Positions 2,940 to 4,877 of a DNA stretch of 5,045 bases are shown here, piece after piece; position 1 is the stretch's first letter, and every line of letters starts with the position of its first letter. The position numbers and the translations under genes are program-made. The notes beneath the pieces are model-generated. The model saw only the letters and a program-made list of their open reading frames with translations, searched no databases and had not been told where the DNA came from. The stretch is from a virus (lineage: Duplodnaviria; Heunggongvirae; Uroviricota; Caudoviricetes): the IMG/VR virus record IMGVR_UViG_2671180524_000020; one strand, written 5' to 3'.

Positions 2940-4877
2940 TCAGCCGCCGGACGCACTGCCGTAGTTCACTCCGGTGATCACCGCCACCGCCGCAGTACGG
3001 CGACGACGCCAGTTGATCCAGCGCTCCGCACGGATGGCCACGCTGCCTGTCTGGAACATGGAAACCAGCTCCACCGGGGACGGCGTGGTACTGTCGCCGC
3101 CCGGCTCAGACTGCATTTCCAGTGATGCCTCGCGGGACATATCCACTGCCACGCCGCCGTCATCCGCCAGATAAATATCCGGGGCATTCACCAGCACCAG
3201 CTGGTCACCCACGTACTGGGAGACAATCACCGGCAGCCCCTGGAAGGAGCCACCCAGCAGGGTCATGTCCGGGTATTCCTTCTGACCCAGCGCATTTTTA
3301 CGCATGGACAGTGCCAGGGCATTGGTGCTGGACATCAGCCAGACCGCACCGGTGGGCTGCAGGTTTGCTGCCACAAACTGTCCAAACGCAGCCTCGGCAT
3401 CCGCATCCGGGTTACCGGTTGATGCCGTGCCCTTCACATCATGGGTGATGGACGCCGGGGAGACATCTGCCACTGCGGCTTTTTTCGGGTCCACAAAGTC
3501 TGTATCCAGACGCGCCACCACCGCTTCCGCCAGCGCATTACGGACCAGTGCATCAGCAGCCGGACTGGAAAAACGGATCAATTCTTCCGTCAGTACCGCA
3601 ATGGCCGACACCTTCGCATGACTGAAGGTGATGGATTCAAAATCAAACTTCGTCAGGGGTTTTGCCTTACCCTCACCCACCCAGCCGGCAGCACCGCCGG
3701 ACACCTGGGCGTGCACACGGATATTGAATGGCACCTGACGAAGTGCAGGGATCCCGCCCTGACCAAATCGCCCGATAATGGTCTGCGGACGCAGGTAATC
3801 AATAAAGTCCTGTGCGTATTCCTGATATTCAGACAGGCTGCCTGCCCACTGCGGATCCGTGGTGGTCCCCGCGCCCACTGCCGATTTCAGGACATGATGC
3901 AGACGACTGTCATCCGGATACTGACGACGGGCCACTTCCAGGGCTTCAGATCGGACGCCTTTAGCCGCAGCCAGCGATTTGGCAAAGCGGGCGAAGCCAA
4001 TCCCCTTATCCAGTTTCTGCTCCACACGGATCACCGGCGCAGAAGCCACCGCGGCCACATTCCCGTTACCGGCCTGTTTCACCGGCTGCGCCGTGGCGGC
4101 CTTACCGGCTTCCAGTTCACGCAGGCGCTTCAGGTGCGCATCCACCTGACGGATTTCCGCTGCGGTGTTGTCGTAATGCTCTTCCTCCTCCACATCCAGC
4201 GTGCGCCCTTCCTCTGCGGCTTTGGTCATGACCTCCTCAAGGGAGGCTGCCAGCGCTGCACGCTTGTTTTCAAAACTTTTAATCTGTTCGCCAATATTCA
4301 TTATGGTCTTTTCCTTATGAAAAACGGTTGTTGACTGTGCCGCAGCGCCGGCAGAAGATGCGATTTTCACCACCGGTTTCCGGTTGCCGGACGCGGCAGA
4401 AAACGGGCGGTCGTAAGATTTAATGGTCCGGATGGTGCATTCCGCATTCGCGGGCACGGTGACGGCAGACACCTCCATCAGTTCCCAGCGCAGAAAATGC
4501 AGTCCGCCTCCGTCCAGAAAGGTGTATTCATGGGGACGGAAGCCCACGGACAGCCCCCTGACCAGCCCGGTCTTAATGGCCGCCCAGACCTCATCCAGCC
4601 GGGCAGCCAGTTGCGACGGCATATCCGGTACGGGCTTCACCAGTGTTGCCGTGATTTCCAGCCCTTCGCTGACCCGGCGCACCGTACACTGCCCCACCGG
4701 GCGGGAATGGTCATGCTGCCAGAGAAACGGGATCGCACTGCCAAACTCCGCGCCCTCCGGCTCCAGGATGTCACCATCCCGATCCGGAGAAGGCGTTGAC
4801 GCAATCCCGGTGATCACCCGTTCATCCTCACTGAAGGATTTCACCGTCAGCAGGGAACAGGCCCGTTTAAGAGTCAC
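2940..4877 (-). CDS. Prohead protease / scaffold-like coiled coil / HK97-fold major capsid protein in one ORF
   Basis: 645-codon uninterrupted ORF with GTG start at 4877..4875. N-terminal ~160 aa carry motifs I associate with HK97-type prohead proteases (peptidase S78/U35): GDILEPEGAEFGSAIPFLWQHD, GLSVGF, LMEVSAVTVPANAECTI. Residues ~190-290 are charged and helical (EQIKSFENKRAALAASLEEVMTKAAEEG...LKRLRELEAG), like a scaffold or delta domain. The C-terminal ~350 aa have an HK97-like capsid pattern (AAGWVGEGKAKPLTKFDFESITFSHAKVSAIAVLTEELIRFS; QGLPVIV...DMSREASLE). Confidence 0.88.
   Translation of the reverse strand: MTLKRACSLLTVKSFSEDERVITGIASTPSPDRDGDILEPEGAEFGSAIPFLWQHDHSRPVGQCTVRRVSEGLEITATLVKPVPDMPSQLAARLDEVWAAIKTGLVRGLSVGFRPHEYTFLDGGGLHFLRWELMEVSAVTVPANAECTIRTIKSYDRPFSAASGNRKPVVKIASSAGAAAQSTTVFHKEKTIMNIGEQIKSFENKRAALAASLEEVMTKAAEEGRTLDVEEEEHYDNTAAEIRQVDAHLKRLRELEAGKAATAQPVKQAGNGNVAAVASAPVIRVEQKLDKGIGFARFAKSLAAAKGVRSEALEVARRQYPDDSRLHHVLKSAVGAGTTTDPQWAGSLSEYQEYAQDFIDYLRPQTIIGRFGQGGIPALRQVPFNIRVHAQVSGGAAGWVGEGKAKPLTKFDFESITFSHAKVSAIAVLTEELIRFSSPAADALVRNALAEAVVARLDTDFVDPKKAAVADVSPASITHDVKGTASTGNPDADAEAAFGQFVAANLQPTGAVWLMSSTNALALSMRKNALGQKEYPDMTLLGGSFQGLPVIVSQYVGDQLVLVNAPDIYLADDGGVAVDMSREASLEMQSEPGGDSTTPSPVELVSMFQTGSVAIRAERWINWRRRRTAAVAVITGVNYGSASGG

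Follow-up and report, generated by a model that had tools for sequence, protein, structure and literature searches.

The head-gene module and its fused gene

We analyzed a 5,045-nucleotide stretch of viral DNA (the window), which sequence comparison identifies as the head-gene region of a long-tailed, Stx-converting lambdoid E. coli prophage of the Pankowvirus type. Across positions 2700..5045, nucleotide identity is 99.8% to phi330 and 2851, 99.7% to YYZ-2008 and 97–98% to BP-4795 and 1717. The minus strand carries the end of terL, a 645-aa open reading frame (ORF, 4877..2940), a 73-aa ORF (2895..2674), the portal gene and a repeat-rich ORF, and the module runs terS-terL-fusion gene-73-aa ORF-portal. 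No separate protease or scaffold gene was found in this head module from terS to portal, in line with a preliminary description of the locus, which held that such genes had been removed. The capsid gene lies ahead of the portal gene, which is an unusual order. The window is draft sequence that contains six single Ns and a gap of 50 Ns (201..250). Its portal gene shows a one-G difference from finished genomes in a homopolymer run and is split, a form that could reflect a sequencing error but that, as relatives show, also arises naturally.

The 645-aa ORF (2940..4877, minus strand, as are all features below) starts with GTG at 4877..4875 and stops with TGA at 2942..2940. A Shine-Dalgarno (SD) motif, AGGAGG (4883..4888), lies 5 nt before the start codon, and a terminator-like hairpin with a T-run (4899..4916) is placed between the terL stop and this ribosome-binding site; the T-run is kept in enterobacterial homologs. 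Most homologs carry a GGAGG-type motif (AGGAGG or TGGAGG) upstream of the 5′ start and a few have weaker ones (GGAGA, AGGAA). GTG is used in the E. coli copies only and ATG in the other homologs; we speculate that GTG may lower the amount of full-length product in E. coli.

This single frame encodes a capsid-maturation protease, an HK97-type delta domain and a capsid protein. The preliminary description had recognized a prohead protease, a scaffold-like coiled coil and an HK97-fold capsid domain in one ORF, and profile, AlphaFold and Foldseek results bear this out, with Peptidase_S78 (PF04586) and Phage_capsid (PF05065) both scoring above their gathering thresholds. PHROG 617 (major head protein) spans the whole chain. 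The fusion model NF045541 (scaf_prot_MCP2) matched aa 48–287 only, at 54 bits against a 525-bit cut-off, which leaves the protein outside that family.

The protease domain occupies aa 4–139 (4461..4868). PF04586 (MEROPS S78) matches aa 48–152 at 34.7 bits (cut-off 21), while the score against the stricter HK97 protease equivalog TIGR01543 was below its cut-off (46.4 versus 59 bits). A fold search placed the domain with prohead proteases and herpesvirus assemblin; a sequence search of the PDB with the protease domain alone returned nothing meaningful. His55 (4713..4715), Ser110 (4548..4550), Glu135 (4473..4475) and Ser137 are invariant in 38 sequences and are kept in 128–129 of 130 fused representatives, which share no more than 50% pairwise identity. 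His55 and Ser110 were assigned as catalytic by motif position (WQHD and GLSVGF) rather than by residue-level structural superposition. The invariance of the catalytic residues makes self-processing a reasonable inference. The linker that follows (aa 143–191, 4305..4451) is predicted to be disordered (pLDDT <50) and is poorly conserved, varying in both sequence and length in the homolog alignment. It is the probable site of protease release.

Beyond the linker, the delta (scaffolding) domain (aa 195–262, 4092..4295) is predicted to form two long helices, aa 195–223 and 229–262, with AlphaFold pLDDT values of 84–89. TIGR01554 (HK97 major capsid) matches aa 204–584 at 78.3 bits (cut-off 27.5), and its N-terminal part covers this domain. 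A flexible segment (aa 263–292, 4002..4091; pLDDT <50 at aa 267–283) is the expected site of the cut that releases the delta domain during maturation, and capsid homologs that have no delta domain begin there (L028 at approximately aa 291 and P0249 at aa 280). The remaining HK97-fold domain, the presumed mature capsid protein (aa 293–640, 2958..4001), was matched by PF05065 at aa 386–635 (52.7 bits, cut-off 24.2) and by Foldseek to the capsid proteins of Bxb1 (9d9w, E 4e-15), HK97 (2fte, 1ohg and 8cfa, target TM-scores of 0.64–0.74), D3 and T5. A PDB sequence search with the whole protein gave a single weak match, the Bxb1 capsid (E 0.0019). The scaffold-like coiled coil of the preliminary description is thus present as a helical segment, but it is the N-terminal delta domain usual for HK97-type capsid proteins (covered by TIGR01554 from aa 204) and not an added scaffold protein. 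In evolutionary terms, therefore, the gene is a fusion of two genes, protease and delta-capsid.

Distribution and origin of the fusion

Protease-scaffold-capsid fusions are already known and have long been annotated, so that any novelty implied for the fusion itself does not hold. The GenBank records of YYZ-2008, BP-4795, JLK-2012 and WGPS6 name the gene "putative major head protein/prohead protease(inase)", and fusion families are on record as NCBIfam NF045541 ("prohead protease/major capsid protein fusion protein") and PHROG 4523. The Stx phages BP-4795, 2851, YYZ-2008, Stx2a_WGPS6 and phi330 carry the same 645-aa ORF at 97.8–99.8% nucleotide identity; their records annotate one product and no internal start, and otherwise show no substantive difference. 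A protease-scaffold-capsid fusion has been published for small-genome actinobacteriophages of Microbacterium cluster EE (PMC7302621), and Klyczek et al. reported fused protease-capsid genes in Arthrobacter clusters AM, AU and AN and in Rhodococcus phage RRH1 (PMC5513430). The actinophage fusions share the three-module architecture of the E. coli gene but belong to a different sequence family, and the two types probably arose independently. With a phage genome of 55–60 kb here, genome compaction is not an obvious driver.

The draft quality of the window and the homopolymer difference in its portal gene could suggest that a missed stop codon or frameshift joined two real genes, and the preliminary description had called for re-sequencing of 4300..4420 to exclude such a stop or frameshift. 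This explanation is already refuted and we give it practically no weight. Finished E. coli O157:H7 chromosomes contain the 1938-nt ORF at 100% identity, and among 5426 complete E. coli genomes 1255 carry it, at 2977 places in total; every full-length row inspected had it annotated as one gene. It is also carried by the viable phage phi330 (99.8% identical at the locus), a siphophage that forms plaques and has a head of 55 nm; its genome was reported as Sanger-sequenced (PMC12502783). The peptide maps in that paper and its supplement are shown for short-tailed phages only (PMC12502783).

More than 100 divergent cluster representatives share the same continuous frame. Of 5.8 billion proteins searched, 2494 were close homologs, and nearly all of the top 120 are 644–648 aa long with both Pfam domains, from hosts that include Salmonella, Enterobacter, Klebsiella, Serratia, Pantoea and Kosakonia. 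When 1.84 billion cluster representatives were searched exhaustively, 1181 matched at E ≤1e-30; among the best 150 of these, 140 are at least 590 aa long and match the whole query at 36–54% identity. At the level of genomic loci, 23 of 29 hold one uninterrupted ORF of 630–666 aa, including loci from Alphaproteobacteria (Chelativorans, Mesorhizobium and a Hyphomicrobiales MAG), Hydrocarboniphaga and Marinobacter, and the ORF is unbroken in gamma- and alphaproteobacterial relatives down to approximately 40% identity. Isolated phages with the fused ORF include Salmonella FSL SP-016, Rhizobium RHph_X2_26 and Pseudomonas IME307. Since the ORF is unbroken in finished genomes, phages and divergent homologs, re-sequencing is unnecessary. 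The breadth of this distribution also indicates that the frame is under selection.

Other relatives keep the two genes apart. Protease and capsid genes are separate in Burkholderia phage vB_FUBS1 (1905..2543 and 2557..3891) and in Moraxella phage Mcat5 (2501..3118 and 3115..4470), and prophages of Snodgrassella alvi encode a 234-aa protease and a 439-aa capsid protein in genes 23 nt apart. The proteins are homologous to the fused chain (32–39% identity), and the order terL-protease-capsid-small ORF-portal is that of the E. coli fusion module, whereas the two genes remain divided by a stop codon and lie 13–23 nt apart or overlap by 4 nt. The capsid proteins of these relatives begin MTIAEKIK (FUBS1), MNYKAQLA (Mcat5) and MTIEEQIN (Snodgrassella), and these starts align with Met193 of the fused protein (MNIGEQIK). 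Five stand-alone capsid representatives of 456–478 aa (P0201, P0230, P0253, P0256 and P0268) likewise begin at query positions 193–196. The shared module order and the capsid start at Met193 together indicate that the fused ORF corresponds to the two-gene module minus its stop codon. Judged from these alignments, ATG193 is the retained start of an ancestral stand-alone capsid gene.

A conserved internal start at codon 193

Codon 193 (4299..4301) is an in-frame ATG and a candidate internal start, from which a 453-aa delta-capsid product is predicted. An internal SD motif, AAGGA (4312..4316, within TAAGGA at 4312..4317), lies 10 nt before it, and the first confidently predicted delta helix begins at aa 195, two residues past Met193. 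The gene thus has an in-frame candidate internal start with its own initiation signals, as in nested genes of the lambda C/Nu3 and UL26/UL26.5 type.

A start codon and an SD motif are present at this site in all 28 fused genes compared, which comprise 24 genomic homologs and four further phages. The start codon is ATG in 26 of them, GTG in one and TTG in one, and the SD variants (AAGGA, AAGGAG, GGAGG and AAGGGA) differ slightly in their offsets. The surrounding linker peptide is not conserved, even though the start codon and SD are kept. An SD core 4-mer at −16..−9 was found in 22 of the 24 fused homologs, against a background of 6% per codon position, and such 4-mers are almost absent from the rest of the 150 nt upstream of the internal start in this set; because the 24 homologs are phylogenetically related, counts among them overstate independence. 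In the larger set of 130 fused representatives, 117 have a methionine within ±3 residues of the Met193 column, compared with 15% of random windows. The representatives with no methionine near this column mostly have valine there, or a methionine slightly further upstream.

The composition of the site is also distinctive. No other part of the ORF in the window is as poor in GC or as weakly folded as the 60 nt around ATG193, where the GC fraction is 0.30 (0.60 for the ORF) and the folding ΔG is −5.8 (median −18.8). Low GC places the internal site in the extreme 2% in 21 of the 24 homologs, and weak folding does so in 20. Synonymous codons up to 10 codons from the site are skewed toward A/T endings, relative to the same amino acids elsewhere in the gene, in 23 of the 24 homologs (mean z −2.0). 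In the window the skew reaches z −2.9, and its ORF-wide minimum is at codon 190. As the skew was measured on synonymous codons, amino-acid composition cannot explain the A/T bias.

These strict tests of SD-core position, GC, folding and synonymous codons replaced a scan for any start codon with an anti-SD duplex of −5 kcal/mol or better, which was too permissive, as 16–42% of codon positions passed. In that scan Met580 was flagged as often as Met193, since a conserved DDGG peptide there forces GGN GGN codons.

The internal SD is predicted to form a duplex of approximately −6 kcal/mol (AAGGA with 10-nt spacing), compared with −10 kcal/mol for the 5′ AGGAGG. As the internal SD is the weaker of the two, the shorter chain is not necessarily the more abundant product, and ribosomes translating through from the 5′ start might also block the internal site. 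In principle, the methionine and the purine-rich linker could be kept for reasons at the level of the protein.

Nested products and the dose of the protease

Confirming a known fusion changes little, and the main lead is the conserved internal start. From the sequence evidence, the reading we consider likeliest, and hold to be probable, is that of a nested gene making both a protease-delta-capsid chain and a delta-capsid chain. We found no description of such a two-product reading of a protease-capsid gene in the searchable literature.

The model that we favor, with rather better than even confidence in it as a whole, begins with two neighboring genes, one for an HK97-family prohead protease and one for a delta-capsid protein, that merged when the intervening stop codon was lost. 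One mRNA would then yield two nested proteins with identical C-termini. The 645-aa protease-linker-delta-capsid chain would start at the GTG at 4877, and the 453-aa delta-capsid chain, which would be the bulk subunit, would start at ATG193 (4301) from its own AAGGA in A-rich, unfolded mRNA. As the delta-capsid part is common to both chains, we propose that they would co-assemble through it into a T=7-size procapsid, and that full-length chains would deliver the protease to the interior on only a part of the subunits, in a proportion that depends on how the two start sites compare in strength. In the assembled particle, the protease (His55/Ser110) would then cut the disordered linker and the segment at aa ~263–292, so that the protease and delta domains are removed and a mature capsid protein of approximately 355–380 aa is left. 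The capsid protein would thereby be the delivery vehicle for its own protease, with a minority of subunits carrying the protease and the majority lacking it, and the dose would depend solely on the balance between two ribosome-binding sites of a single mRNA; we regard this as fairly probable. The preliminary description had asked how dosage is controlled if every capsid subunit carries a protease domain, and the internal start with its own SD is the most likely solution to that problem.

Alternatively, every subunit could be the full 645-aa chain, with the protease present 1:1 with capsid and digesting itself away, and the internal SD and ATG would be an unused relic. The strong 5′ ribosome-binding site (AGGAGG) and the continuous frame are both consistent with this, and the small-genome actinophage fusions have been described without a second product (PMC7302621; PMC5513430). 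Space inside the shell would also seem to permit it: by our own rough estimate, approximately 415 extra 20-kDa protease-linker segments together with the delta domains would fill approximately 40% of a T=7 interior, a load comparable to the P22 scaffold mass, so that a 1:1 protease is not sterically impossible. However, a relic should decay, yet the start codon, SD spacing, low GC, weak folding and A/T bias persist in lineages that are only 40–50% identical and whose linkers cannot be aligned. We therefore consider the nested gene likelier than a relic, and a single full-length product unlikely, although it is the likeliest of the alternatives. The three-in-one, self-processing precursor of the preliminary description stands in so far as the invariant catalytic residues make self-processing reasonable; as the only product, it sits poorly with the conservation of ATG193 and its SD.

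The A/T-rich stretch at codon 193 might instead be an internal promoter for a separate capsid-only transcript. The region does have the lowest GC of the ORF, and herpesvirus UL26.5 offers a precedent for the use of a separate transcript (bioRxiv 10.64898/2026.09.13.751334). Against this, no sigma-70-like match was found anywhere in 2600..5045, and the site conserves an SD a fixed distance ahead of a start codon and not a pair of −35/−10 hexamers. Lambdoid late genes, moreover, are transcribed as a single antiterminated operon. We consider an internal promoter very improbable.

The proposed nested gene can be compared with several known head-assembly systems. In HK97, a gene of its own encodes the protease, which enters the prohead by means of a C-terminal targeting tail. 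HK97 gp4/gp5 share with the fused gene the S78 protease family, the design of a delta domain joined to an HK97-fold capsid protein and the lack of a separate scaffold protein; the E. coli gene differs in that the protease is covalently joined to the capsid chain and in that the capsid gene comes before the portal gene. In lambda C/Nu3, Mu I/Z and HSV-1 UL26/UL26.5, a long protease product is accompanied by a shorter, C-terminally identical product made from an internal in-frame start. HFTV1 gp17/gp17.5 provides a further nested protease/scaffold precedent (bioRxiv 10.64898/2026.09.13.751334). All of these nested systems carry the protease into the procapsid at a sub-stoichiometric dose. Their shared C-terminal part is a scaffold protein, whereas here it would be the capsid protein with its delta domain, and internal initiation has been demonstrated in lambda, HSV-1, Mu and HFTV1 but is inferred for the E. 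coli fusion gene. A CBASS-escape preprint and our first literature matches were set aside as precedents because they concern scaffold-protease fusions and not capsid fusions.

Thousands of enterobacterial genomes list this gene as one product, either "phage major capsid protein" or "prohead protease"; such annotation misses the main capsid precursor if the internal start is used. Proteomic and structural studies of Stx phage heads should then expect a precursor of approximately 49 kDa besides one of approximately 69 kDa. If the nested reading is true, the gene would also offer a simple genetic system for studying the dose of a procapsid protease, with two ribosome-binding sites on one mRNA and with natural split and fused variants, and it would extend the principle of lambda C/Nu3 and UL26/UL26.5 from the scaffold to the capsid protein. 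With well over a hundred cluster representatives (50% identity clusters) across Proteobacteria, the family forms a natural series for gene fusion and fission in phage head modules.

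Portal region and assembly of the window

The portal region of the window comprises two ORFs on the minus strand, an upstream one of 454 aa (1364..2728) and a downstream one of 353 aa (306..1367), which are joined by an ATGA stop/start overlap; the junction lies within 1364..1390. The same region forms a single 859-861-aa 'portal' CDS in the E. coli O157:H7 TR01 genome and the related Stx phage YYZ-2008, and the sole difference at the junction is a run of five G residues in the window (G5, ~1378..1382) versus six (G6) in both of these genomes. A homopolymer sequencing error in the window may account for the split. 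The two-gene form is also found in Salmonella phage FSL SP-016 and Pseudomonas phage IME307, and therefore the split is perhaps the natural state; judged from these sequences, the long E. coli 'portal' may be a one-base fusion.

The window is interrupted by a gap of 50 Ns and by six single Ns (201..250 and 542..579). Relative to the O157:H7 TR01 copy, the capsid ORF is 100% identical, while identity outside this ORF is only ~96%. These two features suggest that the window is a draft assembly, which possibly collapses or mixes several paralogous lambdoid prophages.

The downstream ORF (306..1367) contains a ~53-aa repeat in three tandem copies (IPVPRDGRDYDPDVLQ...ANIPVPADGKSITPDDVRPMLEQMVKEAVSH), and its C-terminal domain matches CBM_5_12 weakly, below threshold. 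It is classed as 'portal protein' in PHROGs, and its product might decorate the head or serve as an accessory protein.

Hairpins flanking the capsid gene

The stretch just 3' of the capsid stop codon (2895..2935, minus strand) carries a strong Shine-Dalgarno (SD) sequence, TAAGGAGGA, succeeded by a perfect hairpin, GGGAGGCG-TG-CGCCTCCC, and, 10 nt further, by the ATG (2895) of the 73-aa ORF. The distance from the SD to this start is ~30 nt, unless it is bridged by the hairpin. Together, the SD and hairpin could form a hairpin-bridged ribosome-binding site (RBS), or could act as an mRNA stabiliser 3' of a highly expressed capsid gene. On the other side of the capsid gene, a terminator-like hairpin (GAACCGCTGCGGCGGTTT) with a T-run is located between the terL stop and the capsid-gene RBS (4889..4916, minus strand). 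Enterobacterial homologs keep the T-run immediately 5' of the RBS.

Longer and permuted relatives of the fused chain

Three database proteins matching the 645-aa chain (P0001, P0123 and P0132) are ~1080-1094 aa long, with extra N-terminal sequence joined to the protease-capsid chain; P0001 additionally has a terminase large-subunit domain (PF03354). These proteins could be artefacts of read-through or of a frameshift, or could represent additional fusions within the head module.

In the homologous locus of a Parasphingorhabdus MAG (L028, 2911..4709), the module order is permuted, with the capsid gene preceding the protease gene. The capsid gene encodes 353 aa without the delta domain and begins at a position that corresponds to aa ~291 of the window's ORF, and the 283-aa protease has a helical scaffold-like segment at its C-terminus. 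The scaffold segment of this locus appears to be joined to the protease and not to the capsid protein.
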